In this document: positions 16,309 to 60,713 of the stretch, piece after piece
Numbering within the stretch: the first letter of the stretch is position 1
Layout: each line of letters starts with the position of its first letter
From: Trypanosoma brucei
Lineage: Eukaryota
Assembly (NCBI GenBank): GCA_000002445.1
Contig: CH464491.1
Span: forward strand, 3,072,001-3,136,000
Reading direction: 5' to 3'
Length of the DNA stretch: 64,000 nucleotides
Made by a program: the position numbers and the translations under genes
The notes under the pieces: generated by a model
Told to the model about the DNA's origin: nothing
Seen by the model: the letters and a program-made list of their open reading frames with translations, nothing else
Database searches by the model: none

Positions 16309-17637
16309 ATGAATCCAGAAGCGGAGGAATTTGTACCGAAGGGGAACCGCACACCAGGATCCGGTGGTCGGCGTGGAAACGGTGGTGGCTCCCGGCAGAT
16401 TCCGGTCCGCGGGGAACGTCAACAACCACCACCACCACCACCACCACCACAGCAGCAACAGCAGCAGGTGGCGCCGTCGTCACAGACAACACTTCGCGCG
16501 AGTGCAGAGCCATTCCAGCCTAAGGGCTCCCAAGGATTTGGGCTCGTTGGGCAAGTACTTCCATATGTTGCCGGCCCACCAGGCGGTGTCCCACAAGCGT
16601 GGGAGTCTGTGGAGCCAGTGCCTCCGCTTTCTGTGTGGAAGAGTGATTCAGTGCAGCAAGCGGGCGCAAAACCGCTGTCACTTAGCGCCACACCCTATAC
16701 GCCTACTAACCCAAAGATTTCGTCCAAGTTCCCAGCCACTCCTGAGGCTCAGCGGGGCCCTTCAACAGAGTTTAAGGACACGACACCAGCGTCACTTCAG
16801 CCTCAGGAAAAGGAAGTGGTAGAGGTAGGTGAAAAGGCTGTGGCTATAGCCTCGCCCCCGGAGGAAGATGCTGTTGCCGCCAATGGTGGCTCTGTTGATG
16901 CCAGCGGCGCACCATCAACGCAGAACTTCACCGTAGGTGAGATAGTGGAGAACGACTTTAGCGGATCGATGCTTCCCAGTTTGTTTCAGGTAGAGGTGCT
17001 AGACAAGCCGGCCCCTGCCGAGCCTGTTCGGTTTAATACAGTGTGGGCCCTCTATGCCGACGAGCATCCAACACCGTTTGGAGCTCCGTTAGCGTATCAC
17101 CCGGTTCTCGTCCACCTTGTTGGGGATGTTGAGTGCTTCTGGCGCCTGTGGAGGCACCTGCCCCCTCCATCCACGTTGCTGCCCGCCTTCACATATCACT
17201 GGTTCCGTCGGGACATTAGGCCGAACTGGGAGCACACCCGTAATAAGAATGGTGGAACAATCACCTTCGTAATATTTGACAGAGACAAGCCGGGTTTGAA
17301 TAACAAGCAGACAATGGATGATGCTTTCATGGCGATGCTCATGGCATGCAGTGGGGAATCTTTGGCGGAGAGTACAACGAACCTCAACGGCGTGATGCTC
17401 AAGGTGCGACAGAACAAACCCACAACGCTGCAGATTTGGACAGCCAGCTCAGATGAGTTGAAGCTCAGGTCCTTAGCCCGTAGTCTGAGGACTTTATTAG
17501 AAAAGGTTATTGGGCCCAAGCCACTGCAAAAGCTAGAATATTTCTCGCATCAAAGGACGCAGGTTGGTGCCCCCGGTAGTCTGGCCGGAAGGATGAAAGG
17601 AAAACCGTCGAGGATAACACCCGACTTCACGCTTTAG
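16309..17637 (+). CDS. EIF4E3: eIF4E-family cap-binding protein with long N-terminal extension (trypanosomatid EIF4E3/EIF4E4 class; length matches EIF4E3)
   Basis: The C-terminal about 200 aa align with the eIF4E core. VRFNTVWALY matches HPLQNRWALWFF, VECFWRLWRHL matches VEDFWALYNHI, and YHWFRRDIRPNWEH matches YSLFKDGIEPMWED. NKNGGTITFV matches NKRGGRWLITL, and GVMLKVRQNKPTTLQIWTAS matches GAVVNVRAKGDKIAIWTT. The N-terminal 230 aa are low-complexity, with a PAM2-like MNPEAEEFVPKG motif at the extreme N-terminus and poly-Pro/poly-Gln. The 442-aa length matches what I recall for T. brucei EIF4E3, but this is from memory, not a search. Confidence 0.8.
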   Translation: MNPEAEEFVPKGNRTPGSGGRRGNGGGSRQIPVRGERQQPPPPPPPPQQQQQQVAPSSQTTLRASAEPFQPKGSQGFGLVGQVLPYVAGPPGGVPQAWESVEPVPPLSVWKSDSVQQAGAKPLSLSATPYTPTNPKISSKFPATPEAQRGPSTEFKDTTPASLQPQEKEVVEVGEKAVAIASPPEEDAVAANGGSVDASGAPSTQNFTVGEIVENDFSGSMLPSLFQVEVLDKPAPAEPVRFNTVWALYADEHPTPFGAPLAYHPVLVHLVGDVECFWRLWRHLPPPSTLLPAFTYHWFRRDIRPNWEHTRNKNGGTITFVIFDRDKPGLNNKQTMDDAFMAMLMACSGESLAESTTNLNGVMLKVRQNKPTTLQIWTASSDELKLRSLARSLRTLLEKVIGPKPLQKLEYFSHQRTQVGAPGSLAGRMKGKPSRITPDFTL

Positions 17638-25614: not shown

Positions 25615-25939
25615 GCACCGATGCAGTGCTTTCGCATCTTTTTTTTTGTACGGGACGTTCACGGATTTAGTACGTGTTTCACTAAGAGTACAGTGATTCC
25701 TCCCTGTTCACTTTTTCTTCTTTTATTATTCTCTGTGTGCTGTGGAATATGCAAACGCGGATAGGTCTGCTTACACGAGCCTCTACGCGTTTACATTCTC
25801 AGTCAGTCTCAGCGATGAACCGTCGGTAATAAAAGCTTTACGGTTCTTCCCCCAAGAGAAGAAAACAAAAAAAGATAAGCTAACTTACGAGGGAAGGGAA
25901 GAAAGGCCTCCTCTTGTGCATTCATCTCCCACCTGCTGC

Positions 25940-35808: not shown

Positions 35809-38800
35809 TTGGGAGAGGGTGGAGCCATGGCCGATGAAGACGGTTCTGTTGAACCGACGTTAAAAGCGCATCGCTGGGAGATGTCCTCCTCCGCATCTGC
35901 AGCTCCCACAACATCGCGGTGGGGCGCGGGGACGCCACGGCAGCGTGGTGGCGACACCCCAAAAGTGGTCGTCAACACGGAGTTGTCGGCGTGGCGTGGG
36001 CATGCAACACCAACACCGAGTGCGTACGCGATGGATCCTGCGAAGACCCCAACCATGCGTGCCACTGGTGGTGCGACACCGGTGCAAGGAGGTCAAACTC
36101 CGATGTTTGGTGGGCAGACACCGGTATTTGGAGGTCAGACACCGGCATTCGGTAGTGGAACACCCATGTTCACGGGGGCAACACCCGCCGCTGGCATGGC
36201 CTTTGGTGCAACTCCGAATTACCAGTTTGAAGGGACAACGCCTGTGCAGTCCCACTTTGCGGGGGGTGAGTCACAATCAGCTGTTACGGCTAACATCGGA
36301 GCCCAGGCAAGGAAATTGGAAATGCAGTGGCGCGTTAAGAATAAGCGTCTTACAGAGGAGTATCTCGACTCGATCCTTCCACCGGAATTTAAGCTTGTGG
36401 AACCACCAGCCGATTACAACCCACCGCCCACGGAAGAGCCTAACTTCTACGAGCTTGCCAGTAAGTCGTTGGATGTCTTTGTTGTGAACCAAAACAGCGA
36501 TGCGGCAGCTTCTATGACTTATGATATACCAGAAAGTCTGGGAGACGGTATGCCACAAATGCAAACTCAAGATGCGCCTGTTTTCGAGGTTCTGCTCAAG
36601 TACCATAACGTGAACCCGATACCTGACGAGGTGCTTCCCTCCTACATGCTGATGAAGAACCTCTTCAAGATCAAGAATGGCGATACCAACCAACGGCGGA
36701 TCGCCATGCGGTACTTGCTAGACAAGGCACGTATTTTTGGGAGTGGACCTCTTTTCCAGTTTACATTTCACGTTTGGCGTTCGGGAATCCTCGACGTGAT
36801 TGAGCAACATTACTATGTGGACCTTGTGAAAGGTGCGATTTCCAGGTTACAGAAAGACGTCCGTGGCTCGAGCAAGGAGATCGTTCACATGATGGAAGTC
36901 TTGCTCTCCGCCCAGGAGCGGGTGCTACGAGATGATGGCAAGGAGGTTCTCATTTTGCTCACGCGTGTGGTAGGCTATGAAGCAGTTTTTGAGGCAATTA
37001 AGGAGGACTTTGCCCACGCGGAAAGCGGTGTGCGTCGTCACACCGCTAAAGTTGTTGCAATAATAGCGTTTGCTGTGGGGCCAGAAATAGCGATAAAGAT
37101 AATTCATGGTATGTCACTGTCTCCGGTTGCCCTCGCTCGTCAGACGTCTGCGCGGGCCATAACTGAAATGGCAACCATCCTCATGCACGCCATCACTGGA
37201 GAATTAGTGGAGCTTGTACCTATTTTTGAAAAACTTCTGCGGGATGAACCGCGGGTGAAACGGGAGGCCGCAAGCGCGCTTGCTCACGTGGCGGAGGCAA
37301 CCTACCCTTATGGAATTGAGGAGTTGGATTCCCTCGTTTATATTGTGCGAGAGGAATGTAAGCGCGGCATCGGTACCACCACGGGGTTGTTCGTCCGCGC
37401 GTTCGGTGCGCTCATTCCGCTAATGGCCCCATATGATGCTCAAAAATACACATCAGATATGCTTCCAACGCTTGTAAATCAGTTTAACACGCCAGACGAT
37501 GAGCATCGCCGCGTTTTGCTTCAAGTGGTGCGACAATGCGTCTCGGCTGATGGAGTGACTGTGGATTTCATTCGTAACGTCATCTTGAGGCCGTTTTTTG
37601 AAGGATTTTGGACCATCCGTCGCGTAGCTGCTGATAGGAAAACAGCCGGTATCCTTATTGATACGACGGTGGGAATTGCACGGCGTATTGGCAGCACGGA
37701 GATTCTTCAATACCTCGTTCAAGACATGAAAGACGAGAATGAGCATTTCCAACGTATGGTTGTTGAGACGGTAAGACGTGTTATTGCAAACGTGGGTGCA
37801 GTTGGTGTTCCCGACACTCTTGTTGCGCTGTTGATGGACGGTGCGATCGCGGCCGTAAAACAGGACGAGACTGGCTTGAACCGTGTGGTGATGGAAGGCC
37901 TGGCGACCATCTGTAATGCCCTCGGTACTCGCCTGAAGCGGCACTTACGGCAGATATTTGATCTCATAAAAAGCCGTCGCGACATGCCTGGGATGATCCG
38001 GATGCAGGCAGCCGAGCTGGCGGCTCGCATTGCCACAACCGTGAAGGATGCAGGAGGAGCGTTGTTCCTGCAGGATCTGGGGCGAAGCCTCTTTGACCGC
38101 CTAGAAGACGACGAGGCCGCCGTGATGAGTGCCAACCTCAAGGCAACACGTGTCATCTTGGTGGAGCTTGGTGCTGCGAGGTACCAACCGCCAGTGCGAG
38201 AGCTCTTAAAGAAGTTGATGTACATAATTCCGAATCGCAATAGCAATGTGCAGCTGAACACCATTTTACTTGTGGAGGAGATCGCAACTAATTGTGACGA
38301 GGACGTCGAGGCCATTCACTTACAAGAGTTGGCGACGAAAGGGTTGTTTGAGCTCCTTGATGCCCACCGTCGTGAAACACGGCGGGCATGCACACGCACA
38401 TTTGGTGTTATTGCGCGGAAGATTCGACCATTTGCCATAATCCTGGAGCTCGTCGATAACTTTAAGCAGGATAAACGTAAGATTCGTATTTGCACAGCGG
38501 TGGCCCTAGGGGCGATAGCCCGCGAATGCGGTGCCTTTACTGTTATTCCTTACCTCCTGAACGAAAGCAAAATATGTGAGGGGGAGCAGGTGGCCACGAT
38601 TGTGCAGCACTCCATTCTTAAGGCCGTTCGATACATCTTCGAAGCTATTGGTGCAGCCGGAAAGGACTTTGTGTATCCTCTCGTACCGCTGTTAGTGCGA
38701 GCACTGACGGAAATGGAGATCCAGCACCGGCGTATGGCGGTTGAGGCATGTCGGTCAATTGTGCTGGCGGTCGCCGGCAACGACGGATTCGAGGATCTGG

Positions 38801-39126
38801 TGATCCACTTCCTCAACTTTATCCACCCCAACATTGTGGAACTTCTTTCGCGGAACGAGACGAAAATAAGTGAGGAGAGGCTTAAGATGGTCACGGCGGT
38901 TGTTGGTTATTACGAGGCAGCGCGCCTGGTAATTGGTTCGGGGAAGTTGTTTCAGTATTTGCTTCAGGGGTTATTCCACCCAGCAAAGAAAGTACGTGAC
39001 ATTTACCGTAGGACATATAACATGGTATATATGGCAAGCCCAGAGGCCCTTGTGCCATATTACCCGCGACTGGGGGATGACAATGAGCATACATATGTAC
39101 GGCACGAGTTGGAGGTGCTACTGTAA
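35809..39126 (+). CDS. SF3B1: Splicing factor 3B subunit 1 (SF3b155/SAP155)
   Basis: The N-terminal region carries TP-dipeptide-rich repeats (GGATPVQGGQTPMFGGQTPVFGGQTPAFGSGTPMFTGATPAAG), as in the SF3B1 N-terminus. The first HEAT region MKNLFKIKNGDTNQRRIAMRYLLDKARIFGSGPLF matches human SF3B1 [32 protein letters not shown]. About 800 aa of HEAT repeats follow, and total length is 1105 aa. Confidence 0.85.
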   Translation: MGEGGAMADEDGSVEPTLKAHRWEMSSSASAAPTTSRWGAGTPRQRGGDTPKVVVNTELSAWRGHATPTPSAYAMDPAKTPTMRATGGATPVQGGQTPMFGGQTPVFGGQTPAFGSGTPMFTGATPAAGMAFGATPNYQFEGTTPVQSHFAGGESQSAVTANIGAQARKLEMQWRVKNKRLTEEYLDSILPPEFKLVEPPADYNPPPTEEPNFYELASKSLDVFVVNQNSDAAASMTYDIPESLGDGMPQMQTQDAPVFEVLLKYHNVNPIPDEVLPSYMLMKNLFKIKNGDTNQRRIAMRYLLDKARIFGSGPLFQFTFHVWRSGILDVIEQHYYVDLVKGAISRLQKDVRGSSKEIVHMMEVLLSAQERVLRDDGKEVLILLTRVVGYEAVFEAIKEDFAHAESGVRRHTAKVVAIIAFAVGPEIAIKIIHGMSLSPVALARQTSARAITEMATILMHAITGELVELVPIFEKLLRDEPRVKREAASALAHVAEATYPYGIEELDSLVYIVREECKRGIGTTTGLFVRAFGALIPLMAPYDAQKYTSDMLPTLVNQFNTPDDEHRRVLLQVVRQCVSADGVTVDFIRNVILRPFFEGFWTIRRVAADRKTAGILIDTTVGIARRIGSTEILQYLVQDMKDENEHFQRMVVETVRRVIANVGAVGVPDTLVALLMDGAIAAVKQDETGLNRVVMEGLATICNALGTRLKRHLRQIFDLIKSRRDMPGMIRMQAAELAARIATTVKDAGGALFLQDLGRSLFDRLEDDEAAVMSANLKATRVILVELGAARYQPPVRELLKKLMYIIPNRNSNVQLNTILLVEEIATNCDEDVEAIHLQELATKGLFELLDAHRRETRRACTRTFGVIARKIRPFAIILELVDNFKQDKRKIRICTAVALGAIARECGAFTVIPYLLNESKICEGEQVATIVQHSILKAVRYIFEAIGAAGKDFVYPLVPLLVRALTEMEIQHRRMAVEACRSIVLAVAGNDGFEDLVIHFLNFIHPNIVELLSRNETKISEERLKMVTAVVGYYEAARLVIGSGKLFQYLLQGLFHPAKKVRDIYRRTYNMVYMASPEALVPYYPRLGDDNEHTYVRHELEVLL

Positions 39127-43969: not shown

Positions 43970-45439
43970 ATGGGCACCGTGTCTCCGGCACGGCGTGTTG
44001 CGTCACCAGGCAAGGGAAAGCGGTCACCTTCGCGGGGGGAAACTCCAAGTGAAGGCAGAACACGACGTGCGGGGTCAAGTCCTTCCTCACGGCCGGGAAT
44101 GCAAACGGCATCGCAGCGTGCGGCAAGGAAAAAGGAGGTCCGGCGACTCCGTGATGCAGAGCTTCTTCTTGATGAAGCGCCGCTGAGCATGGTGGGAGAA
44201 CGCGCACAGGATGCACTTGAGGCAATGCTACGTGCTTTGGACATACGCCGCAACGCGTCGGCAACGCCCAAGAAAATGCAGCCGGTATGGCATCACGTAA
44301 AAGCGCTTGTTGTCACTGCTAATCGAGAGGGCCTTCGCCGCGCCTATGCCGCATTTCCGGCAGAGGAAGGTCACTACTTTTTCGGGAAGGCTCTGTCCAC
44401 ACTTGAGTATTCTGCAAGCACCGTCAACACAGCAGCGGACGGTGGTGAGTTTGCGGAGTGTCCGCTGCTTCTCAGTCACCTAATGGAGGCGACGCTCAAC
44501 AACATTGCTTTTCAACAATATATCGCGCATGAGCCTCCGGAGGCCATTTTGAAAACCCTCCAGCGGGCACTGAAGGTGCAGCACCATCAAGCGTTTAGAA
44601 CCTTGACATTGTATAACATGGCTGTTGCTTTTCTAGCCGCGCGACGGTATGAAGATGCTACAGAATTTGTTGCACGTTGCAGTCAAGTGGCCGAAGTGTG
44701 CTTGGAACTTGAAGTTTCGCTGACACGGGAGATATCATCACTCTACAAGGAATATCACACAATGGTCGCTACCCACGCCATTATGTGTCATCATTTACTT
44801 GCAGGGCTAGCAGCGTGGAGTGGAGAAAGTGACATGGAGGTGTACCACGCTCAGCTTGCTCTGTGCTGCGCAACGAAGTTCCTTGCAGAGGGTAGCGCGC
44901 TCGTCTCGCGCTGTCAGCAACGACTTACTGCCGCCAAAAGCGGAAACTCGGCAGCTGTGATTGCACAGAGTGACGAACCGCCACGTATGCAAATGATGAC
45001 CGATGACCTCGAGATTCTTGCAAGTCCACTTTTTTTACAGTTTTTACTGGAGACGCAGCGGATGCAGCGAATTGTTTTCCCACCGCTGAAGGGGTTACAA
45101 AGGCGTAAAACGGTAGTGAAACGTGGACAGAGATTAGGATCCGGTAAGTCATCGCCCGAAGTCGAGGCCGAGGACACCGGCCTCACCGGCAGCGCCCCGC
45201 ATCAACCAGCGGTCGACGGTAACGGAGAAGAAGAAAAAGCGGGTACCCACGCTTCCATCAGTTATTCAAGATCTCCGTCGCAGGGGGTCGGTGCAACCAC
45301 CGACGTACGGATTGTATGCTCCCCCGTCGCATGTATTGCCACTGGTTGTGACATGCGTACCGGAGACGGCGTACGAGTGTTACAAAGGTCTTCGCAAGGA
45401 CGTAAGGGGGCTGATGTGCTCTTTGGGTCGACTGCATGA
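43970..45439 (+). CDS. Hypothetical protein with basic S/R/P-rich N-terminus and TPR-like helical region
   Basis: 489-aa ORF in the polycistron orientation. The N-terminal 70 aa are basic and Ser/Pro-rich, and the middle carries helical-repeat-like segments (LYNMAVAFLAARRYEDATEFVARCSQVAE). The last about 50 codons overlap the next ORF (45291..) in another frame, so the 3' end and the relationship to the downstream gene are uncertain. Confidence 0.45.
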   Translation: MGTVSPARRVASPGKGKRSPSRGETPSEGRTRRAGSSPSSRPGMQTASQRAARKKEVRRLRDAELLLDEAPLSMVGERAQDALEAMLRALDIRRNASATPKKMQPVWHHVKALVVTANREGLRRAYAAFPAEEGHYFFGKALSTLEYSASTVNTAADGGEFAECPLLLSHLMEATLNNIAFQQYIAHEPPEAILKTLQRALKVQHHQAFRTLTLYNMAVAFLAARRYEDATEFVARCSQVAEVCLELEVSLTREISSLYKEYHTMVATHAIMCHHLLAGLAAWSGESDMEVYHAQLALCCATKFLAEGSALVSRCQQRLTAAKSGNSAAVIAQSDEPPRMQMMTDDLEILASPLFLQFLLETQRMQRIVFPPLKGLQRRKTVVKRGQRLGSGKSSPEVEAEDTGLTGSAPHQPAVDGNGEEEKAGTHASISYSRSPSQGVGATTDVRIVCSPVACIATGCDMRTGDGVRVLQRSSQGRKGADVLFGSTA

Positions 45440-45458
45440 ACTGAATGCTGCAGATGAA

Positions 45459-48086
45459 ATGATTGAACCGGGAACGTTGGAATCGGGATGTGGACGATCG
45501 CTCTGGAAGCTGAACGACAATACCGCGGAGAGTGCGCCGCCGCCGGGAAGGTACCTCCGAATAACTGATAGGAGACTACGCATGTTGTCCGCCCTTGTGC
45601 GCGACCTTCGCTTCGAAAAACTTCTTGAGGCCGCAATTCTGGCACAAAGCTACTGGCGGGGAATCTTGTCACGCCGGGAGAATAAACACAGGCTGCCGAT
45701 GCTACAGGAACGAATGCGGCAGAGGGAAGCCGTAGAGCTTATACAACATGCGTACCGTAATCATCTTGCCACTCGCGGACCCATCAAAGAGAAGCACGAG
45801 CTTCGGGCTCACCGTCTCTTGGTACAGCGTCTAGTGGTAATTCAACGGCACCTTCGCGGTAGGCAGAGTGTAGTGGAGGAGCGAAACCGTGGCCTAGGTG
45901 TAATTGTGCAATTAAATGAAGCCATTTTAGAGGCCCGACGCCGGGTTGCGGCATCCATTGTCATACAATCTTCCTGGCGCATGTGTGCTGTCCGCATCCG
46001 CATCCTGAGGCTGCTCGCCGCCACAATTCGGGTTCAGTCCGTGTGGCGAGGTCACGTGGGTCGGGTGGAAGCACGTGAGAGGCGGGTCCGTGAGCGGCTG
46101 CGAAAGCAGGACCGATTGGCGGTGCTCCTCCGTCATGTTTATCCGGTCCAAAAGCGGTGGAGAGGTGTGCTGGCGATACGAAAGGCGAAAGAATACGTGG
46201 AAGGTTTGAAGAAAAATGTCGTGGCGTATTTAGAAGAACAAGAGAGGATAGTAGATGCCATGTGGGGTAGATTCAAGTGCGTGGCAAATGTAGAGTTGTC
46301 CGTGTTGAAGATATTGGATGTGCTGCGTGCTTACCGTTCGCGAGAGGAATGTGCTAAAATGTATCCTTCGATGCTCACGCGACGTCGCTTTTTGTTACGC
46401 ATAGTATGGAAGAAACGCGCAACTCATATTGCTGGGATCATGCGTGAGCAGCAACTAACGAAATGGATGTTGCAGCGGCGCCGCGAGGAGGTGGCGGACG
46501 CTGTTCTGCTCCTTCAGTGCGCCGTGCGCCGATGGTTTGCCCAAAGGAAAAGTATGGCCCTGCGCCGGGCGTTAGACTGGACGCATGTATGTGCCCGCAA
46601 GATACAATCCATGTACAAACGTCAAATGGGCCGCCGTATGTTCTTAGAAGCCAAGATGGCTACCAAACTGAGGGAGGAGCAACGTATGATCTCTCAACTG
46701 AGGCACTACTGCGCCTCCAAGATACAGGCAACATGGCGTATGTTCACCGTGTGGCATGAGAATAAGGACTACCTTCATTTCTTGCACCATGGTCGTCATA
46801 AATATGCAACAACTATCAGGAATGCTTGGATCACCTACAGAGAGCGGCAACAGAAGAAAGTAATCATCGGGATGCGTCTTATGGAGCACCAGCAAAAACA
46901 GAGCGCTCAAGAGCAGCTTTTGTCAGTTTTGCGTATCCAAGCCATGGTCCGCATGTTCCTCGTTCGATCCCGAATGCTGCGAGATGGTGTGCAACTGCGA
47001 CCGACGCTGGCCAAGCTGCATCGCTCCGCGAGAAGTATTCAGATGTCCTGGCGTCGACACGCTGCCTATGAGTACGTTTCGCAACTCCGCTTTTCGCGTG
47101 CGTACTACGACCAACACAAGGTGAACATGGAGTCCCTGCACACGTACGCAACCATGATCCAATCTCTGGTGCGGGCAAAGGTCATCAACCCGTGGCTGGT
47201 AGCGGTACGGGAGCTGGAGCTCGAGCAAGCTAGCACAGAAGAGAAAGAAAGAAGACGGGAGAAAATGTTAAAAACATATGCTCTATTTACAAAAGAAAAT
47301 ATGTTCCCCGGCGCAGGTAACAGACTTTCCGCATGCGGCCCCGAAGCCCTTGTGGCGGGAGGAAGAACGTCACTCGATACCGGCTCTTTTGTGACTCCCC
47401 TCCGGAACACAGGTACGAGTTATATCTCTGAGGGTCCATGTTCATTCAGTGTGAAGCTATGTGAAACGTGCGTATTGCCAACTCGGTCAGTGAGTCGCTC
47501 TTGTCTGTCGGGCACGTCGCAATCCGCAGATATTTGCGCGCAGAAGGGTGACGAGCACCAATCGTTGGACACTACTAGCTTACACCAAGTCGATGGCCAG
47601 AGATCACCCTCCTCGGACCAATTAGACGTAGTCAAGTCTTGCACCGCAAACGCTGTTCACCCGCCTTTGCGCAACATGGACACGAGGTCAACTACTATTC
47701 TCGGTTCCTTGTCAGCTATCTTTTCAGGACGCCCTGATCTGGAGGGTTCTGCCGATGGACGCAGAACCTCTGCAGGGTTGAGGGGGAGGGAAACTTCGCA
47801 TTCTTCGTGTCCAGCAGGGTCTGAGTTTGCAAGCGTCACAACATCTGAATATTCTTCCTCTCTATGCTATGATCCAGTTGTTCTTGCCGCGGTGGTTGCA
47901 TTAATTCAGCGCTGCGGTCGTGGATTTCTTTCGCGGGCTTCCACACGACGGAGCCTTCAGAAAAGTGATCGGTGGCTGGCCGCCGTTGATATACAGCGGA
48001 TGTGGCGTGGGTTCTGCGCTCGGCAGCTGGTTGAGGTTTACTACGAGTTCTACACGGAAGAGGTGGAGGTAGCCGCAGCCGAGTAA
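45459..48086 (+). CDS. IQ-motif array protein (at least 14 IQ calmodulin-binding motifs)
   Basis: Repeated [IVL]Q-x3-[RWY]-[GR]-x3-R motifs throughout, for example ILAQSYWRGILSRR, IQHAYRNHLATR, VIQRHLRGRQSV, IVIQSSWRMCAVRIR, IRVQSVWRGHVGRVE and VQKRWRGVLAIRK. The array continues with LQCAVRRWFAQRK, ARKIQSMYKRQMGRR, ASKIQATWRMFTV, LRIQAMVRMFLVRSR, ARSIQMSWRRHAAY, IQSLVRAKVI, LIQRCGRGFLSR and VDIQRMWRGFCARQ. The ORF is open from 45291, overlapping the upstream ORF. 45459 is the first in-frame ATG after the upstream stop at 45437-45439, so the true start is unresolved. Confidence 0.55.
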   Translation: MIEPGTLESGCGRSLWKLNDNTAESAPPPGRYLRITDRRLRMLSALVRDLRFEKLLEAAILAQSYWRGILSRRENKHRLPMLQERMRQREAVELIQHAYRNHLATRGPIKEKHELRAHRLLVQRLVVIQRHLRGRQSVVEERNRGLGVIVQLNEAILEARRRVAASIVIQSSWRMCAVRIRILRLLAATIRVQSVWRGHVGRVEARERRVRERLRKQDRLAVLLRHVYPVQKRWRGVLAIRKAKEYVEGLKKNVVAYLEEQERIVDAMWGRFKCVANVELSVLKILDVLRAYRSREECAKMYPSMLTRRRFLLRIVWKKRATHIAGIMREQQLTKWMLQRRREEVADAVLLLQCAVRRWFAQRKSMALRRALDWTHVCARKIQSMYKRQMGRRMFLEAKMATKLREEQRMISQLRHYCASKIQATWRMFTVWHENKDYLHFLHHGRHKYATTIRNAWITYRERQQKKVIIGMRLMEHQQKQSAQEQLLSVLRIQAMVRMFLVRSRMLRDGVQLRPTLAKLHRSARSIQMSWRRHAAYEYVSQLRFSRAYYDQHKVNMESLHTYATMIQSLVRAKVINPWLVAVRELELEQASTEEKERRREKMLKTYALFTKENMFPGAGNRLSACGPEALVAGGRTSLDTGSFVTPLRNTGTSYISEGPCSFSVKLCETCVLPTRSVSRSCLSGTSQSADICAQKGDEHQSLDTTSLHQVDGQRSPSSDQLDVVKSCTANAVHPPLRNMDTRSTTILGSLSAIFSGRPDLEGSADGRRTSAGLRGRETSHSSCPAGSEFASVTTSEYSSSLCYDPVVLAAVVALIQRCGRGFLSRASTRRSLQKSDRWLAAVDIQRMWRGFCARQLVEVYYEFYTEEVEVAAAE

Positions 48087-48727
48087 GCTTCATGAGGTCA
48101 TCACGGAAGAATAGCAGCTGCCGACGTACATAGGAAACACACCTTTCCCACCCGCTCATTCACATGCGCTGGTCACGCGTGGACTTTTGTTTAAACTTGT
48201 CTTTCTGCTGCTGGAAAGAGTGAGATGTACCCAATAAAGATGAAATGCCGTCATGGTTATCACCGCTACGGCAAGGACCGGGCGTGTAGATATATTGTAC
48301 ATGTTTCTATTAGTTACTTTTCATGTTCTACTCCTCAATCGTCCCAACATACACCCCTCTTTTTCTACTTTAAATTCCCTCCCCTGGGGGTGTGCACACA
48401 GGGCCACAACAACGCTGTATTTCCGATCTCCTTCTTACCTTCTTCATTCATTCCCTTTACTGCTACCTCCTTCTAACACCGTGGCCAGCATATCCCGAGG
48501 CTTTATATATAGGTATATACGCCGGCGTCCGGGAAGATAAGTGATTTTTTTTAAAAAAAGGAAAAAAGAAGGGGTTTCTGCTGGAGCGGTAGCAGGGACA
48601 ATCGTGAAGATAAAAGAGAAAACAGAACTTAATTGGGAAGTCGCTCTTGTGGGGAACGAAAGAGAGGAGAAAAGAGGGAAGGCGCCCGAGGGGAAAGAGC
48701 CAGAAAACTATTGGAGAGGAAGGCATC

Positions 48728-51364
48728 ATGCAACACGACCGTGACCGGTACGACAGCGAGGAAGATGATGAGGAATCTCTCCCTTTCGATGGTATTGAGA
48801 AGGCTTCTGTGCTTCAGCAGTGCCGCGTGTTCAACGACGTGCAGCTCGATATCTCAGCCTGCCTGCGCTGTTTGACGGAGTGCTTATACCTCATTTATAC
48901 GGGAACTACATTTACAGAAGCAGAAGCCACGGAACTTTTCTTTATGTCAACAAAGCTGCTTCAGTCAAATAGATCAAGGTTGCGACGGTTGCACTACGTG
49001 CTGATGAAGGAGCTCAGCCCATTTGTCGAGCAGAGCTTTATTGCATCCAACTCACTTATGGGTGACACCAAAAGCAACAATGAGTCTAATAAGCGAAATG
49101 GTATGCGTACCCTCTGCAAGGTAATGAATCCTTCACTTTACCCTTTGTTGGACCGTACCATCGTGGAGTCCCTCACGTCGCGGAGCGAGAAGGTCCTATT
49201 AGCCTCTCTCATTACAGGCTTCCACGTGGCATTGAGCCACCCCGATTTAGCGCGCAAGTGGAGTACGCAGCTGAACGAAGCCATTCGAGTGCTGGGAAAC
49301 ACGCAATACCTGACTGTCGCGATCATGCATATTATCCGCAAGAGCGACCGCGTTACTGTTAAGCGGTTCATTGAGCAGGTAAGAAATGGGGTGGTTCGGT
49401 CTCCCCTTGCTCTCTCTTTCCTCGTGAAGTTGACAACCGACGTTCTGCAGGAGGGGTTCGAGGAAGATCCCGAGGTCAAAAAATACATTGCCACTATGAG
49501 GCATAGCAGCAGTGAAATTGTGGTGTTTGACACGCTGAGGTGTATGTGTGTGGCCGGCAACGCGTCGCCGCAGCAATTTGCGTTAGTTGCCTCGGTCGCG
49601 CAGATATATTTGAACGCGAAAACCAGTGTATCGCGTTTCTGCGCCATTCGCGTTCTGCACGATCTCGCCGCAATATACCCTGACGCGGTAACACCCATCA
49701 GTTCCGATATTGAGCAGCTCATAATGGATCAAAACCGCTTCACCGCCTCTTTTGCAATGCTAACATTATTGAAAACTGGCACGGAAGCATCTGTTGAGCG
49801 GCTTATCGGTGCGCTTGGTAGTGTGGGACAACTGCGAGAATTACCCGATGAATTCAAGGTGGCTATTACACTCGAACTGCGGAGCGTGAGTGCGAGATTT
49901 CCACAAAGGTATAACTTGTTCCTCGGCTTCCTTGTCAAGCTGCTAAGTGATGATGGCAGCAGCACCTTTAAGGAAAGCATCGTTGAGGTGATTACGAGCG
50001 TAGCAAAAGCGAATGATGGCGCAAGGGAGGCCGCGCTCAAACACCTTGTCGATTATGTCGAAGACTGCGCCCACGTTAGCATTCTTCACCGAGTGCATAT
50101 GTACCTGGGCGATGAAGTTCCACGGTCCGAAAACCCAGCCCTTTTCATCCGCTATATTAACAACCATGCTGCTCTGGAGTTCCCGGAGGTGCGGGCCGCC
50201 GCCGTCAGCACATTCGCGAGAATCGCTGCCCGCGTTCCATCGCTGCGCCGATCTATTCTCCCGTTGTTGAAGCACAAATGTAGCGACGAGGATGACGAGG
50301 TGCGAGACCGCGCCATTATGTACACAAAAGTGTTCTTGCTGGGCGACGAAGACGTGATTCATTCAATGGTGACGGAGGTTTCCAATACCGTGGCCGCGAG
50401 GCGAAAGTTGATAACCCCCATGACCCCCACGCCACTTCTGGAGCCAGTCAAGCGAAGGATGTGCCAAGCGGACCACTCGACGGTGGCGGTTGAAACAGGA
50501 ATTGGTAAAGAAGCGGCTCACAGTAGCAGTGGAGGCGGTTCAGTTCCGGGCAACCAGTACTCCTCGGCAATATCGGAGGGACGTGCAAAACTACTGAAAA
50601 TCAAGCAGTTGCAGGAGCTGGGTGAACCTCGTGCGTCAAGTGAGCCGGTGCCCCTATCAGATCCCGACAGCGAGTACTTTGTAACACTCATTAAGCACGT
50701 ATATGTCGCCCATGTGGTGTTGCAATTTAGGGTCAAAAACACCATGGATAGTGTGGTCTTCCGTCGCGTTACGGTGGAGATGGACACGGAAGAGTTGGAT
50801 GCAGAGCCGCTCTATGCAATACCCATCAGCGCCATCGAGCCTGGAGCTACAGAGTATGCTTATGCGGTTCTACAATACAGCGAAGGGAGGTACCCAAGTG
50901 GGACGCTGGGCTGCCGTATCAAGTTCGCTTTACAGGAGCGTGATGGCAGTAGTGTCGCTGGTGAAGGTGAAGAAGAGTACCCACTTGAGGATTTCGAAGT
51001 CAACGTGAGTGACTTCATTACGCCAATCGATCTTGGTGAATGTTTTCAACAGAAGTGGGAGGAACTTCGGCAAGAGGAAACATGTGGGACGTATGCCTTG
51101 AGCTCCATGCGCAACCTCACTGCTGCCGCGCACGAGCTGGTAGAATTCTTCGGCATGCATGTAGTTGGGGGGAAAGTGGATAAAATTACAGCGGCATCCC
51201 ATACACTTCTTATGTCGGGAAGTATGGTAGATGGCGCAAGTTCGCTCGTGATGATTAACGCTCGTCTGTTCATTGCCACAGACAACACTGTGGCCCTGCA
51301 ACTAACTTTGAGGGGTGGTAGTTCCGAATTGCGTGAATATCTCTCTGGTGCGCTGCTGTCGTAG
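48728..51364 (+). CDS. COPG: Coatomer (COPI) subunit gamma
   Basis: The ORF-track ORF begins at 48647, and I place the start at the ATG at 48728 (MQHDRDRYDSEEDDEESLPF). The N-terminus EKASVLQQCRVFNDVQLDISACLRCLTECLYLIYTGTTFTEAEATELFFMSTKLLQSNRSRLRRLHYVLMKEL aligns with COPG [73 protein letters not shown]. An adaptin-N-like HEAT trunk follows, then a C-terminal appendage. The product is about 878 aa. Confidence 0.85.
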   Translation: MQHDRDRYDSEEDDEESLPFDGIEKASVLQQCRVFNDVQLDISACLRCLTECLYLIYTGTTFTEAEATELFFMSTKLLQSNRSRLRRLHYVLMKELSPFVEQSFIASNSLMGDTKSNNESNKRNGMRTLCKVMNPSLYPLLDRTIVESLTSRSEKVLLASLITGFHVALSHPDLARKWSTQLNEAIRVLGNTQYLTVAIMHIIRKSDRVTVKRFIEQVRNGVVRSPLALSFLVKLTTDVLQEGFEEDPEVKKYIATMRHSSSEIVVFDTLRCMCVAGNASPQQFALVASVAQIYLNAKTSVSRFCAIRVLHDLAAIYPDAVTPISSDIEQLIMDQNRFTASFAMLTLLKTGTEASVERLIGALGSVGQLRELPDEFKVAITLELRSVSARFPQRYNLFLGFLVKLLSDDGSSTFKESIVEVITSVAKANDGAREAALKHLVDYVEDCAHVSILHRVHMYLGDEVPRSENPALFIRYINNHAALEFPEVRAAAVSTFARIAARVPSLRRSILPLLKHKCSDEDDEVRDRAIMYTKVFLLGDEDVIHSMVTEVSNTVAARRKLITPMTPTPLLEPVKRRMCQADHSTVAVETGIGKEAAHSSSGGGSVPGNQYSSAISEGRAKLLKIKQLQELGEPRASSEPVPLSDPDSEYFVTLIKHVYVAHVVLQFRVKNTMDSVVFRRVTVEMDTEELDAEPLYAIPISAIEPGATEYAYAVLQYSEGRYPSGTLGCRIKFALQERDGSSVAGEGEEEYPLEDFEVNVSDFITPIDLGECFQQKWEELRQEETCGTYALSSMRNLTAAAHELVEFFGMHVVGGKVDKITAASHTLLMSGSMVDGASSLVMINARLFIATDNTVALQLTLRGGSSELREYLSGALLS

Positions 51365-53672: not shown

Positions 53673-56129
53673 GTGAGACGGCGCAGCAGACCGCGGGCAC
53701 TGCACTTGTGGTCAGTATTGACTAATAAAGTAAATATCAGCCGAGCAAAAAGGCATCATACGGCAAGGGTAGGTCCAAACACATACACGCGTCTTCTGCA
53801 TATGTTGCGGCTCGTGCTGACGCTGCTAGCGAAGAAGAAGGTGCCACCTCCGCCAAAGCGGGGGCGACCCGCGACCCCCCAGCGAGGGAAGTCGAAGTTA
53901 GTTCCAAAGGGGCGCTCACCGTCGTTGACCCGAAAAGTGACACCGAAGGTCGTCAGCCGTCAGTCGCCTGCGAAAAAGAGCACGATCAAGGTATCCACTG
54001 CGAGGGTTAGCCGTAGGAGCGATAATAAAGGTAGGGGGAGCAAACTGATCGACGATGTGGACAGCTTTCCCGTGGCGGCTGCCGTGGAGCATGCGCCCGC
54101 CGTCGTCCCGTCAGTTGAGGTTGCAGCTACATCCACCGCGATGACGGTGACTAGAAAACCACACTACTCTCTCGCCACAGCTGTTTCAACTGTTATTGTC
54201 CCTCCCTGCGCGAACGCCGTGCTGGAGACGATGAAACAGACGCTCTCACCTTCCGTGAGATCTCCAAGTGAGGCTGGTGTCGACCTCTGCGGTGATGGGA
54301 GCGGTGTCGAGCAGGGCGGGGAGCCACCGTCACAAATGGAAGAATTTTACACGCCAAAGAAAGGACCTCTCTTTGCCACCGCTGTCATTGCCGGCACTAA
54401 TGCGGTTAAACAAACCAGTCAATTGATCCCCTTCTGCCACCCAGCGCGCATACACAAGTGCTCCTTTACCTTTAGGCGGCGCGTGCTTGGCGGCCTTACA
54501 CGCATTTCCTCCCTTCCTCATCGTGTTGTTTTGAGGAAAAGAGCAACACCTTCCCCTCATTCGAGCCGCAACCGTCCTGAGTGCAGCGTTATTTACTGCT
54601 TTTGTACGGTGGCAACAGATGATGAGACACGTTCCGGGGTAGAAATGGAGGCACTAGCTGGAGCAACGATGGCAGCACTCACAATGTACGACATGCTGCG
54701 CGCCCTTCCGTCTGCGCAGGAAGATGGAATCAGCGTTGGCGAAGCCTTTGTGCTGGCAAAGAGAGGTTCCCGTGGGGACTTTACGAAGCTCCTCGTATCT
54801 GAGCTTCCAGCGGAGGACTCGGCTGGTGCCATGGGCGAGGTAAGAAGAGCGGCATTAACCACAGGACGGGAGGATAACGCAAGTGAGGACAATTTCACAT
54901 ACGCTGATGACTATGAAAATCTAAGTGGTGGGGAAGGGCTGGAAACTGGAGTGGAGGAACACAGGAAAGTTGGAACTCTACAAACCTCCGGGTCGCGATG
55001 CGGAGGGTTAGACGATGGAGAGCACCAGTCAGAAGAATTCCACGGCGCTGCAGATGCCATTGATGGTGATGCTGCGAGGCGGGAGCGTCAGCGTGAGCGT
55101 GATGCAATTCTTGGTGAGGCAGAGGAAATGGAGGCGGAAGGGAGTGTTACCAACCCGGAAGAAGAGGAAAGGGCAATGCCGGAAGAGGCTGCCACTCTGA
55201 TAGATCGGAGCGCTTGGTGGAGGTCCACCGCACGGGATCGGAGACTGCAACATTTGCAGCAAAATATGAGACATGAAGGGAACTCAAATCGGTCGGCACC
55301 TCAGGCTCCGGCACACAAGTCACCGGAGGTGAGGCCACCGATGCAGAAGGATGCGATGAAGAAGTTAGGTGTGAAAAACAAACCTCAGGAGTTGCCGTTT
55401 CAAAGGCCAAAGATTATACCGGTGAGTAAAAAATCTGTGAAGCTTGTGGATAAGAATGGTGGTATCGCTGTTCCGAAGGGGCAGCGCGTAGTTGTGGTGG
55501 AGGACGAGTATTATGAGGAGAATGGGGATGAAGCACACGCCGACGATGAGATTTACGGTGGTGATGATAGTGAATATGAGGAACTTTACAACGACGATGA
55601 TGCTTTGGGGGACGAAACTGCATTGGAGTCCGAGGCGCAGCATAAGAAGTTGCTGAGGTACAAAAGTGGTGAGTCTGTTAGAGCGCAGACCACATCCAGG
55701 GGTGCCGTCAGCGTCCACAAGAAAGGAAGGGACTACCGTGATAATGACAGCTACAACGACGAGAATGCCAGCGAGGACGGTTTGTTTGAAGAGGAGATGG
55801 AGATGGGTTCACGACAGAAGGTTAAAAAGGGTAAAATAGTTCAGTCATTGCTTTCCCGAAGGGGAAATGCCAGGGCGACCGACGATAGCTACGATCACGA
55901 CAACCAGTCTGTGACATCTCCCAAACACGAATCGTGGGATGCCGAGGAAGCAAAGGAATGGGAAAGCGAAGAGGATGATTGGAGTAATATAAATATGCAC
56001 AATGAAACCGAGAGTGTAGCGAAGGGGCATCTGCACGCCAAAAGGCGTAATCCCCTCCCACTACCGAAGAAAAAGGAGATGAAATTCAAGAAGACTATCA
56101 AACAGAAACAACGCCCTGAGAAACGGTAG
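53673..56129 (+). CDS. MoaC-domain protein (cyclic pyranopterin monophosphate synthase MoaC fold) flanked by a basic AT-hook-like N-terminus and a long acidic C-terminal tail
   Basis: The central segment aligns with bacterial MoaC. [31 protein letters not shown] matches [59 protein letters not shown] matches [39 protein letters not shown] matches LLAKSGGKSGDF. A roughly 35-aa basic insertion lies between the first two blocks. The N-terminus has [22 protein letters not shown] (RGRP AT-hook core). The C-terminal about 430 aa are highly acidic and low-complexity. An alternative start ATG lies at 53802. Confidence 0.65.
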   Translation: [818 protein letters not shown]

Positions 56130-56867
56130 CGTTCGTGTTTAGATTTACAACGGCAGTTGTGCGCAAGGTCATCTTGCAGTATCGCCAAGGTCACACTGTG
56201 AGCCTCCCGAGAAACTCAGTGGGGCTGCTGCAGTTGTGAAGCAGCAAAATAGAGTAACTCGCAGGTTAGAAGCACAGTGACCACATAGAGTTTCAAACAA
56301 TCATATACTTTTCCCTTCTGCGTCACAGATAGAGGCATGTCGCACAAAGCAGCTACGGAAGTATTTAGTGACGGCGTTGGCACCTGTGTTTGTTCGTGAC
56401 TTTCTGTATCTCCATTGTAAGCATGCTCAGCGCGTTCCTTAGCGATTTTGCAGCATGTCCATACATTGGTGCATATGATGGGGGAAGGGGATGTTTCCCC
56501 ACGTACTACCATTAGACCAAAAAGAGCACATATTTATATCCCGTAATTTGTACGTTAGTAATACATTGAACTTTCGGCCGCTTTGTTGTGTGCCTCCCAC
56601 AGCTTCTGTTTTTTTTTCTTTTTTACCCTTCCTCATCAACTGCTTTTTTTTTTTTGGTGCCCTTTCTTTCGCTCAACTGGGAGACTGATATGTGTGGATT
56701 TTCGCGAAAAAAAAAATCCGGTGGTGTAAAGTGGTGTGGAACTGAGGAGAGAGGGCTTAAGTAAAACCATACCATTAAAAGTTGCACATGCGCAGCAGGA
56801 ACCTGTCCCCGTTTTCTACCTCCACATCGTGGCGGCGAGCACTTTGTATCAGTACAGCGGCTGAAAC

Positions 56868-56909
56868 GCCCTCTTATTTTTCCTGCCTTCTCTTCTATAC
56901 TGTACGGCA
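56868..56909 (+). promoter_or_regulatory. Polypyrimidine tract plus AG immediately upstream of the MsrB start codon (candidate SL acceptor)
   Basis: ccctcttatttttcctgccttctcttctatact, then ...gcAG at 56908-56909, then ATG at 56917. This is the basis for preferring 56917 over the ORF-track start at 56782. Confidence 0.45.
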
Positions 56910-56916
56910 GTCATCA

Positions 56917-57339
56917 ATGACACACTGCGCAAGTAAGAAGCAGGCAGATGGATCAAAAGATATTGGAGATGCCGCATGGAGGGAGAAGTTAACCACACAA
57001 GAGTACCGCGTGCTCCGTCAGAAGGCCACGGATCCGCCATTCGGGGCTTACAATACCCATTTTGAAACTGGGACATATCACTGCGCCGGCTGCGGAACAC
57101 TGCTTTATAAATCATCCATGAAGTTTCCCTGTGAGTGCGGCTGGCCAGCGTTCTTTGACTGCGTGCCGTTGGCTGTCCGTGAGGAGCCCGACAGTGATGG
57201 GGTCCGAACGGAAATTTTATGCAATGCGTGTGGAGGGCACTTGGGCCACGTGTTTCGTGGAGAGGGCTTCAATAATCCACCACCTAACGAACGACATTGT
57301 GTGAATGGAACAGCTATTCGTTTTCAATCCGAGAAGTAA
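56917..57339 (+). CDS. MSRB: Peptide methionine-R-sulfoxide reductase MsrB (SelR domain)
   Basis: Shows the Zn-binding CxxC pairs and catalytic motif in canonical order (GTYHCAGCGTLLYKSSMKFPCECGWPAFF ... ILCNACGGHLGHVFRGEGF ... RHCVNGTAIRF). The ORF-track ORF starts upstream at 56782. The ATG at 56917 lies just after a pyrimidine tract and an AG, and gives a 140-aa product of typical MsrB size. Confidence 0.85.
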   Translation: MTHCASKKQADGSKDIGDAAWREKLTTQEYRVLRQKATDPPFGAYNTHFETGTYHCAGCGTLLYKSSMKFPCECGWPAFFDCVPLAVREEPDSDGVRTEILCNACGGHLGHVFRGEGFNNPPPNERHCVNGTAIRFQSEK

Positions 57340-58992: not shown

Positions 58993-59531
58993 GCAATGGT
59001 TTCTTTTTTTTTTCTTTTAGGAGTTTTTACGGCAGTGGGCAGAGGTGCTCCGGCAGTGGTGGGCGCTGGGGAGGGAAGGAGTGCGAGGTTTGGGGAGTTT
59101 CAGTGGTGCAAAGGGCGTTTGCCGTCTGCCTTTTTTTTTGTTGGTTATTTCATTCCGCGGCTCGAGTACGGAGGGAGTTGGGCTAGGAACCGGAGAGTAA
59201 AGAAACGCTAAAATGGGTGAGTGACACGTTATTGTGTGTGCGTGAGTGCGCTCTTTTTTATTTTTGCTCGCGCTCTTCAGGGCTCCGTGAAACAACCACA
59301 CTCCGTGCATTCAGCGGGGTACTTTCCCCTTTGTTAATAAAGCAATGTCATACACTACAGTGCGATGTGTCTGAGGGTCTTAACTGCTGATGTTTTCACA
59401 TTGCTCTTACTTAGGCACCGACCGACTGGTTGAGGAATTGCAGAGCAAAAAAAAAAACAAAGCTAAGAAAACTCAGTTACTACTTCTGTCGAAGGGTTGG
59501 GGCGAGTGACTGTGATCACAGATCGATTTCA

Positions 59532-60713
59532 ATGATTCGCCTTCGTTATCGTGCGCGGGAAGTGGCATTCGGGTGGTCGAGGGGACCGGCGCTGTGGTCT
59601 ACGCGGCGGTTGGAATCGATGGGATCCACCTCGTGGCGCGTTCCGTCAACAAACAAAGCTGTGGCGCAGTGGTTGTACGGCTCAGCTGCGGTGGTGGGAT
59701 GCGTTGTTGTAGTTGGTGGTGTCACACGACTCACTGAGAGTGGTCTGAGCATAGTCGACTGGAAGCCGGTGACTGGCGTAAGGCCACCCACCACACAAGA
59801 TGAATGGGAGGAAGAGTTCGCGAAATACCAGAACTTCCCTGAGTTCAAACAAAGAAACACCATGACGCTTGAGGAGTTTAAGTTCATATTCTTTTGGGAG
59901 TGGGCCCACCGGGTGTTAGCGCGCAGCGTGGGAATTGTCTATGGTGTGCCCCTCTTGTACTTTGTTTGCAGGGGCAGATTCAGAGCGCAGCCTGCGCTTT
60001 TGGCCACGCTGAGTGGTATACTTGCACTTGGAGGGGCGCAGGGAGCTATGGGATGGTACATGGTGCGAAGTGGCCTCGACCCTCAGTTACTTGATGAGAG
60101 GCGGAAAGCTAGAGTTTCCACCTACCGACTAGCCGCCCACTTAGTATTGGCCTTCACCATTTACGCCTCTTTGATGCGTGTTGGGTTTGGGCTAAAAATG
60201 CCGCGGATGGCACACTTTCCCGGAAGGACGCGCATTCAGGCTTGCGCTCGCTGTTGCTTTGCGGCGGTGCTTTGCACAGTAATTTCAGGGGCTTTTGTGG
60301 CAGGCCTCGGCGGGGGTCTCATGTACAACGATGAGCTCCCGTGGATGGGTGGCGGCTTCATTCCACCGCGGGACCACCTTATGGTTGTGGAGCCGTGGTG
60401 GCGTAACGCACTGGAGAACCCCGCGGCGGCGCAGACGTGGCACCGTTTGATGGCGGCTGTCAGCACCACCGCCATCATGGCGATGAATGCCACATGTTTT
60501 CGCTACCGTGTTGCCATTCCGCTCAGCGTCTGGAAGAGTGTGGCAGCCGTTAATGCCATGCTAATCGCGCAGGTGTCACTGGGGGTTTGGACTATTGCTT
60601 CTTATGTGGATCTCCCCGTAGCGGTAAGTCACCAACTGGGGTCGCTGCTGCTTCTTACAACAACAATCCGAGTGTGTGCCGTTCTCGGATCTCGAGGGTT
60701 GGTACTTGTGTAA
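59532..60713 (+). CDS. COX15: Heme A synthase COX15 (cytochrome c oxidase assembly protein)
   Basis: [52 protein letters not shown] aligns with human COX15 [51 protein letters not shown]. The heme-ligand region [19 protein letters not shown] is also conserved, and multiple TM helices are present. The ORF-track start at 59430 is TTG. The first ATG at 59532 gives an Arg-rich presequence-like [13 protein letters not shown]. Confidence 0.85.
   Translation: [393 protein letters not shown]

Follow-up and report, generated by a model that had tools for sequence, protein, structure and literature searches.

Analysis of a 64,000-nucleotide stretch of Trypanosoma brucei DNA (contig CH464491.1, positions 3,072,001 to 3,136,000; hereafter the window, to whose first letter all coordinates refer) identified a gene, Tb927.11.11920, whose product contains a genuine MoaC domain within a non-canonical architecture. 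The gene lies in an uninterrupted frame on the + strand at 53673..56129, as a preliminary description of this DNA had reported. The length of 818 residues given there, however, needs a GTG start under the bacterial code (translation table 11), whereas under eukaryotic rules the first ATG is at 53802 and yields a protein of 775 residues. We took 53802..56129 (775 residues plus stop, + strand) as the true coding sequence, based on this first ATG and on identity to XP_829254.1 of T. b. brucei TREU927, with which the product is 100% identical. Tb927.11.11920 is already annotated in public databases, as a "molybdenum cofactor biosynthesis protein, putative", and corresponds to the old identifier Tb11.01.3750 and to UniProt Q382Y9, with a mass of 85.372 kDa (table of Peikert et al. 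2017, Supplementary Data 4). In the literature searched, we found no functional study of MoaC or the molybdenum cofactor (Moco) in trypanosomes, nor of Tb927.11.11920, whose identifier was named in the main text of no paper, and a sequence comparison with the PDB found no solved structure containing a T. brucei chain of this protein.

The MoaC homology of Tb927.11.11920 is solid. The Pfam MoaC profile PF01967 matched the protein over profile positions 35-135 (E=3.1e-21; 76.3 bits, cutoff 27), in line with the MoaC blocks recognised in the preliminary description. The same profile matched 19/19 orthologues, and phmmer aligned E. coli MoaC in two blocks flanking an insertion. In an AlphaFold2 (AF2) model of residues 105-345 the core elements had predicted local distance difference test (pLDDT) values of 70-93, and a Foldseek comparison of this AF2 core with the PDB returned best 28 matches that were all MoaC (probability 1.00, template modelling score (target) 0.59-0.75). 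Based on Pfam, AF2 and Foldseek, the MoaC-fold core was placed at residues 113-335 (54138..54806, + strand), including a first strand that is outside the Pfam match yet recognisable against the orthologues. This strand is degenerate in T. brucei as compared with Angomonas MVDISNKRPSYRLATAV; the first-strand sequence is THVDPETNMVRMVDISNKRPSYRLATAV in Angomonas deanei and TVDTSEKKPPYCLATAV in T. cruzi. The canonical N-terminal loop and strand (THxD...MVDVS.K..T.R.A.A) is not found in T. brucei, where D17 (E. coli numbering) is lost and R26 is Ser. Scores against the NCBIfam equivalog models were below their cutoffs (TIGR00581, 72.1 vs 141.5 bits; NF006870 (PRK09364), 77.9 vs 162 bits). The radical S-adenosylmethionine motif CxxxCxxC, the MoaA signature that had been reported missing, was confirmed to be absent from the ORF.

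Canonical MoaC is a protein of ~160 residues, whereas Tb927.11.11920 has 775 residues, a degenerate first strand and N-terminal loop, Arg in place of K131, and two insertions in the fold. The basic insertion previously described as splitting the fold was found as a 31-residue stretch within the beta-hairpin, at residues 230-260 (insertion 2; 54489..54581, + strand). It is conserved throughout the family of long orthologues, in which a 10-residue core is nearly invariant; the net charge of residues 225-262 is +9, and pLDDT is low at 236-255. There is also a second, poorly conserved insertion of ~33 residues, which had been overlooked, between helix 1 and the K51 loop (insertion 1; residues 146-178, 54237..54335, + strand); it is variable and predicted to be disordered (pLDDT <50).

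Long orthologues of 403-1138 residues were identified in T. vivax, T. cruzi, T. rangeli, Leishmania, Leptomonas, Phytomonas, Angomonas and further assemblies. Common to them are an N-terminal helix, the 31-residue insertion and three motifs in the C-terminal tail: an AWW helix, HxSWD and PPPxKKK. Mean pairwise identity among nine long orthologues was 0.79 and 0.77 in the two MoaC halves, 0.55 in insertion 2, and 0.50 in each of the first 13 residues, the AWW motif and the HxSWD motif; it was 0.23 in insertion 1, 0.14 in the basic linker that follows the N-terminal helix and 0.11-0.12 in the tail linkers. This pattern bears on whether the long protein could be a gene-model artefact, produced by fusion of a short MoaC gene and a neighbouring ORF via a missed stop or frameshift. 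There are precedents for such errors, in that the EukProt model P0027 of a relative wrongly fuses a MoaC-like protein to MsrB, and a frameshifted gene is present elsewhere in the window. However, the frame in the window is open from ATG to stop, with no missed stop and no fusion, and the AWW, HxSWD and terminal basic motifs occur in the same order in long orthologues of more than 15 species, such that we give an artefact virtually no credence.

The N-terminal helix is predicted to be amphipathic and comprises residues 1-13 (53802..53840, + strand; AF2 helix 2-10, pLDDT ~73), with the consensus MxRLxxLLAKKK among the long orthologues. It looks like a conserved mitochondrial presequence helix, a call whose basis is the predicted helix, its conservation and published fractionation. 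The mitochondrion is the usual site of eukaryotic MoaC action, and in plant Cnx3 and human MOCS1B an N-terminal extension targets the protein to this organelle, where the first step of Moco synthesis takes place in the matrix. Tb927.11.11920 resembles these proteins in its N-terminal extension and mitochondrial fractionation. It differs from them in being without a MoaA partner or fusion, in having a conserved basic insertion in the hairpin and in adding a 440-residue charged tail that bears conserved motifs not found in them.

The published fractionation data are of two kinds. In organelle-enriched fractions after ATOM40 RNA interference, the abundance of the Tb927.11.11920 protein was 0.49-fold (log2 -1.02, p=0.012; Peikert et al. 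2017, Supplementary Data 4), a value that rests on 2 peptides in 2/3 replicates. The drop matches that of the matrix protein MRB4150, listed beside it in the same study, and the protein was outside the authors' earlier mitochondrial reference set (Peikert et al. 2017). In one T. brucei data set of hyperplexed localisation of organelle proteins by isotope tagging (hyperLOPIT), the protein was assigned to "mitochondrion - matrix 2" (p=0.999999), a class whose markers include RNA-editing proteins, iron-sulfur (Fe-S) assembly proteins and TOP2 (Moloney et al. 2023). We infer that this was the procyclic data set, because COX15 (Tb927.11.11950) is listed only there. Neither the gene nor its description was among the entries listed in the TrypTag, nuclear-proteome and mitoproteome supplements, an absence that means little. 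A basic amphipathic N-terminal helix, ATOM40-dependent abundance and presence in the matrix fraction (in 1/2 T. brucei data sets) are the properties of a presequence-targeted matrix protein, and the published fractionation together with the conserved helix indicates the mitochondrion. The Tb927.11.11920 protein is therefore probably mitochondrial rather than chromatin-bound.

The preliminary description had instead emphasised an architecture reminiscent of chromatin proteins, based on an RGRP AT-hook core in a basic Pro-rich segment and an acidic tail. The segment following the N-terminal helix is a K/R/S/P-rich basic linker (residues 14-112, 53841..54137, + strand; pLDDT <50) that is predicted to be disordered; residues 1-82 have a net charge of +24 and a pI of 12. 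An RGRP-containing segment does occur in the linker, once (53856..53897, + strand), preceded by Lys and in the basic, Pro-rich context reported, and RGRP arises in only ~1% of shuffles of the 82-residue basic region. It is specific to T. brucei, however: neither RGRP nor GRP was found in the N-terminal region of the 22 other orthologues checked, among which T. vivax has RAQRER, T. cruzi and T. rangeli RRGRAA, and Leishmania RRHVLR. What is conserved at the N-terminus is the basic composition (K+R 18-64 vs D+E 4-11 across orthologues) and not the RGRP motif, and the protein had no AT-hook Pfam match at E<=1, which argues against a functional AT-hook. The likeness to AT-hook proteins of the HMGA type consists of the one RGRP core with basic flanks and an acidic C-terminal region, set against the lack of conservation of that core, the lack of a model match and the non-nuclear fractionation. 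Since the published fractions are of mitochondrial matrix and microtubule-structure classes, with dependence on ATOM40, and the gene description was not among the entries listed in the nuclear proteome supplement, we consider it highly improbable that this is an acidic-tailed AT-hook protein of nuclear chromatin.

The C-terminal tail comprises 440 residues (54807..56126, + strand) and is predicted to be disordered, with pLDDT <50 throughout bar one helix. It had been described as about 430 residues of strongly acidic low complexity. The tail is net acidic (net charge -27, pI 5.07) but not uniformly so, as acidic and basic blocks alternate and it ends in a basic run. No Pfam domain was found in the tails of 19 orthologues, and the T. 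brucei tail contains no tandem repeats. The first of its three motifs, with the consensus GD..AWWxS..EKRLQEL.PRRKYG (55209..55274, + strand), is a predicted helix in which all 19 sequences compared share W472 and W473; an AF2 helix at 477-489 (pLDDT ~65) lies shortly downstream of this WW pair. T. brucei and T. vivax retain the WW but have lost the PRR(K/R)Y half of the motif, and a profile of the AWW motif alone had no match at E<=10. The second motif is (V)xHxSWD (55917..55949, + strand), and the third is the basic C-terminal end, PPPxxKKxKK..RR (56055..56126, + strand), which is conserved in the long orthologues. In the full-length AF2 model order was restricted to helix 2-10, the MoaC core and helix 477-489, and 562/775 residues had pLDDT <50. 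The T. b. gambiense DAL972 orthologue differs from TREU927 at 3 residues; the genes have 3 synonymous and 3 non-synonymous differences, the latter all in the tail, which are too few for a ratio of non-synonymous to synonymous rates (dN/dS).

An exhaustive search by profile among 1.84 billion representative proteins identified 14 long-type clusters at E<=1e-97, followed after a gap by short insertion-bearing forms (1e-39..1e-29) and then by canonical MoaC (~1e-25). In an unbootstrapped neighbour-joining tree the long forms made up one clade, adjoining Bodo saltans and the short forms. By these sequence comparisons, the long form is a discrete clade. The MoaC of Bodo saltans (P0110) has 228 residues, an N-terminus (MLKRSLLQFAKKR) of the same type as the long forms, a canonical THVD..MVNIQAK start and no tail. 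We considered whether the Bodo saltans gene might be a truncated model and rejected this, the next ORF, 140 nt downstream, encoding an unrelated M16-peptidase-like protein. Bodo saltans P0110 and the short metagenomic forms P0033-P0036 resemble the long type in presequence (MLKRSLLQFAKKR type), in YDMLKG.PGAQ and in having insertions at the same two sites; they differ in being short, in having every canonical invariant intact, with the THVD..MVD.S.K N-terminus among them, and in being without the conserved insertion-2 core and the long tail. Because these short canonical relatives adjoin the long clade, we conclude that the long form derives from an ordinary mitochondrial MoaC.

Two of the short forms, P0033 and P0034, finish at the C-terminus with a run of Ser/Glu/Asp and then one of Lys/Arg, in the manner of a miniature of the trypanosomatid tail, and it is possible, from this resemblance in sequence, that they represent its precursor state. 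Tails of this kind also affect searches. The full-length query returned 28 matches and the core-only query 7759; the former number was low because low-complexity tail words filled the candidate list, such that charged tails can hide homologues when a search relies on a word index.

The active site was surveyed by a census of 107 canonical MoaCs and 17 long-type sequences, in which columns at least 95% conserved were counted as near-invariant. Positions follow E. coli numbering, for which the reference sequence was checked against the alignment from residue 49 onwards. The canonical set had 49 near-invariant columns. The long family keeps 32 of these, including K51, G52, T57, A58, K67, P74, C76, E112, E114, D128, K147, G149, G150 and D154, and varies at 17, including M15, V16, D17, K21, R26, T69, H77, T109 and K131, while the short intermediate forms keep nearly all 49. 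The family thus has in common with canonical MoaC (E. coli, PDB 1EKR/4PYD) the same fold and 32/49 near-invariant columns, and differs from it in the relaxation of H77, T109 and T69 and in belonging to a lineage reported to be without MoaA and molybdoenzymes.

The substitutions were lineage-specific: Trypanosoma carries K131R, Leishmania and Leptomonas carry H77Y, and other clades carry H77Q or H77N, some of them together with K131R. Lys187 (54360..54362, + strand), the equivalent of the catalytic K51 of E. coli, is invariant in the family. His213 (54438..54440, + strand) corresponds to H77, which is His in 107/107 canonical sequences; the 17 long sequences have His (9), Tyr (5), Gln (2) or Asn (1), the T. 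brucei residue being His and that of Leishmania and Leptomonas Tyr, while further lineages have Gln or Asn. Arg300 (54699..54701, + strand; YDMLRA) corresponds to K131, which is Lys in 107/107 canonical sequences and in the long family is Arg in 9 and Lys in 8 of 17. The change from Lys131 to Arg pointed out in the preliminary description is therefore real in T. brucei, but it does not extend to the whole family: Arg is present in Trypanosoma and one further clade, and Lys is kept in Leishmania, Leptomonas, Phytomonas and Angomonas. Six residues (K51, H77, E112, E114, D128 and K131) reportedly constitute the catalytic set of MoaC, and T. brucei is identical at 5/6 of them, the sixth being K131R. 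The non-conservative changes in T. brucei are R26S and the loss of D17.

Previous research has described the roles of K51, K131, D128 and E112 in MoaC, including that mutation of K51 or K131 stalls the reaction at an intermediate, that K51 and D128 pair in the closed state, and that the N-terminal loop closes over loop 3 (PMC9026282). This active-site-closing loop is degenerate in most long-type lineages and is retained in Angomonas and Bodo. Since the long type of Angomonas is canonical at all residues examined except T69, we conclude that the tails arose on a canonical-looking enzyme, with relaxation following independently in different lineages. The Angomonas deanei protein (P0031, 403 residues), from an endosymbiont-bearing trypanosomatid, is the shortest of the long-type proteins and the only one in which the whole N-terminal loop, H77, T109 and K131 are all canonical.

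Molybdenum utilisation appears to have been lost in Kinetoplastida (Peng et al. 2018). In that survey T. brucei, T. cruzi and five Leishmania were negative in every column for the Moco pathway and molybdenum transporters and had zero molybdoproteins; the 8 trypanosomatid genomes covered were scored as without Moco biosynthesis or molybdoproteins, T. grayi having a single "+" in one column and 0 molybdoproteins. The statement that kinetoplastids vary in their retention of the cofactor therefore calls for refinement: the trypanosomatids surveyed were all scored as without it, and the free-living Bodo saltans keeps a canonical-looking short MoaC. No other Moco gene was found among the genes of the window (64 kb), and Jackson et al. 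2016 made no mention of molybdenum.

These findings led us to propose, tentatively and at slightly short of an even chance, that Tb927.11.11920 is an orphan mitochondrial MoaC that has been kept for a new role, with the fold and part of the pocket conserved and the insertion and motif-bearing tails doing the new work. A new role is probable because the gene is conserved where the remaining Moco pathway is reported lost, and among the possibilities raised in the preliminary description a repurposed or pseudo-enzymatic domain was the best supported, with residual activity possible from the residues retained. The protein is the trypanosomatid orthologue of the mitochondrial cyclic pyranopterin monophosphate (cPMP) synthase MoaC, of the Cnx3 / MOCS1B type, and would be imported into the mitochondrion via its conserved N-terminal presequence. 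The MoaC fold has been kept under strong purifying selection despite the reported loss of the remaining Moco pathway and of all molybdoenzymes, and cPMP production for Moco would most likely have been given up.

A functional cPMP synthase is a hexamer (trimer of dimers) with its active site at the dimer interface. The MoaC domain of Tb927.11.11920 is probably an oligomeric module too, and the pocket it retains (K51, K67, E112, E114, D128 and K147) probably still binds a phosphate-bearing ligand. The basic N-terminal linker, the conserved basic hairpin insertion and the long mixed-charge tail with its three conserved short motifs probably recruit partners or nucleic acid. A putative oligomer of this kind, with a globular core and long acidic and basic disordered regions, would be analogous to nucleoplasmin and nucleophosmin, with which there is no kinship in sequence or fold.

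Several observations weigh against a new role. K51, K67, H77, E112, E114, D128 and K147 of T. brucei are identical to canonical MoaC, the changes K131R, K21R and T109S are conservative, and Angomonas keeps every examined canonical residue but T69, so that activity may persist. For the absence of MoaA and the remaining pathway there is a single published survey. The localisation data derive from 2-3 peptides, and the other T. brucei hyperLOPIT data set assigned the protein to "microtubule structures 1" (p=1), with "unknown" in a further table (Moloney et al. 2023).

The first of these observations are also what would be expected if the protein were still a working cPMP synthase, or catalysed a closely similar reaction on a pterin or cyclic-nucleotide precursor, with the extensions adding only targeting or regulation. 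In addition to the retained H77 and otherwise conservative changes of T. brucei and the near-canonical site of Angomonas, 17/17 long orthologues share K51, K67, E112, E114, D128 and K147, and the mitochondrial matrix is the usual workplace of eukaryotic MoaC, as in Cnx3 and MOCS1. However, T. brucei, T. cruzi and Leishmania are reported to be without a Moco pathway, molybdenum transporter or molybdoenzyme, so that there would be no MoaA product to serve as substrate. H77, K131 and T109, which 107/107 canonical sequences share, vary in the long family, the loop that closes the active site (PMC9026282) is degenerate in most lineages, and the score is under the NCBIfam equivalog cutoff (72 vs 141.5 bits). 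On balance, we think a working enzyme unlikely, while giving it appreciable weight.

The split between "microtubule structures 1" and "matrix 2" is of the kind seen for some proteins of the tripartite attachment complex (TAC), which divide likewise between bloodstream and procyclic forms (Moloney et al. 2023). This raised the possibility that Tb927.11.11920 is a protein of the mitochondrial nucleoid, that is of kinetoplast DNA (kDNA), or of the TAC, in which a MoaC oligomer, with several basic N-terminal linkers and acidic tails, might serve basic kDNA proteins as a charged hub or as a chaperone. The charges of the N-terminal linker (+24) and tail (-27), the conserved basic insertion and the presence of TOP2 among the matrix 2 markers are consistent with such a location. 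However, the protein was unmentioned in two recent kDNA-protein screens, and highly charged disordered proteins can co-fractionate non-specifically, and we regard this alternative as improbable. Bacterial MoaC is a hexamer (PMC9026282). In the most specific form of the hub proposal, which we advance as a speculation of low probability, the MoaC hexamer would have become a multivalent charged hub in the nucleoid or attachment complex of trypanosome mitochondria. Its six basic N-terminal linkers and hairpin insertions would touch kDNA or RNA, its six acidic AWW/HxSWD tails would chaperone or recruit basic kDNA proteins, and its old active site might sense nucleotides or pterins. As an enzyme, MoaC is normally small and single-purpose, and to our knowledge no second job has been described for it; if the hub proposal were true, it would be the first known non-Moco function of the MoaC fold.

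The retention of a strongly conserved, expressed and apparently mitochondrial MoaC in parasites reported to have dropped the rest of the pathway would be of consequence in either case, as it represents either a clean repurposing of an enzyme as a scaffold or sensor, or a trypanosomatid Moco or pterin metabolism that has been mis-scored. In addition, since there are strong differences between the parasite protein and the MOCS1B domain of human MOCS1, the gene could mark a parasite-specific mitochondrial process.

The local gene order is gamma-COP (48647..51364), two small ORFs, Tb927.11.11920, MsrB (SelR; directly downstream of Tb927.11.11920 at 56782..57339), a metallophosphatase and COX15 (59430..60713). 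This synteny is kept in a related assembly, and the fusion to MsrB in EukProt model P0027, itself a gene-model artefact, confirms that it is conserved. The frameshifted gene is represented by overlapping ORFs in different frames at 43970..48086, namely 43970..45439 (489 residues) and 45291..48086 (931 residues), which correspond to a single 1371-residue IQ-motif gene in T. b. gambiense and a single 1252-residue gene in a related assembly. The span of 4117 nt is not a multiple of 3, which points to a 1-nt frameshift in the window that may reflect divergence between strains, an error in sequencing or a pseudogene. Further genes in the window encode an eIF4E-family protein (16309..17637), a PIF1-like helicase (25742..28378), an SF3b1-like protein (35809..39126), V-ATPase B and a NUBP-type Fe-S P-loop NTPase. 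The 22 ORFs that reach 250 residues or more are all on the + strand, and the cumulative GC skew climbs steadily, which fits one polycistronic transcription unit.

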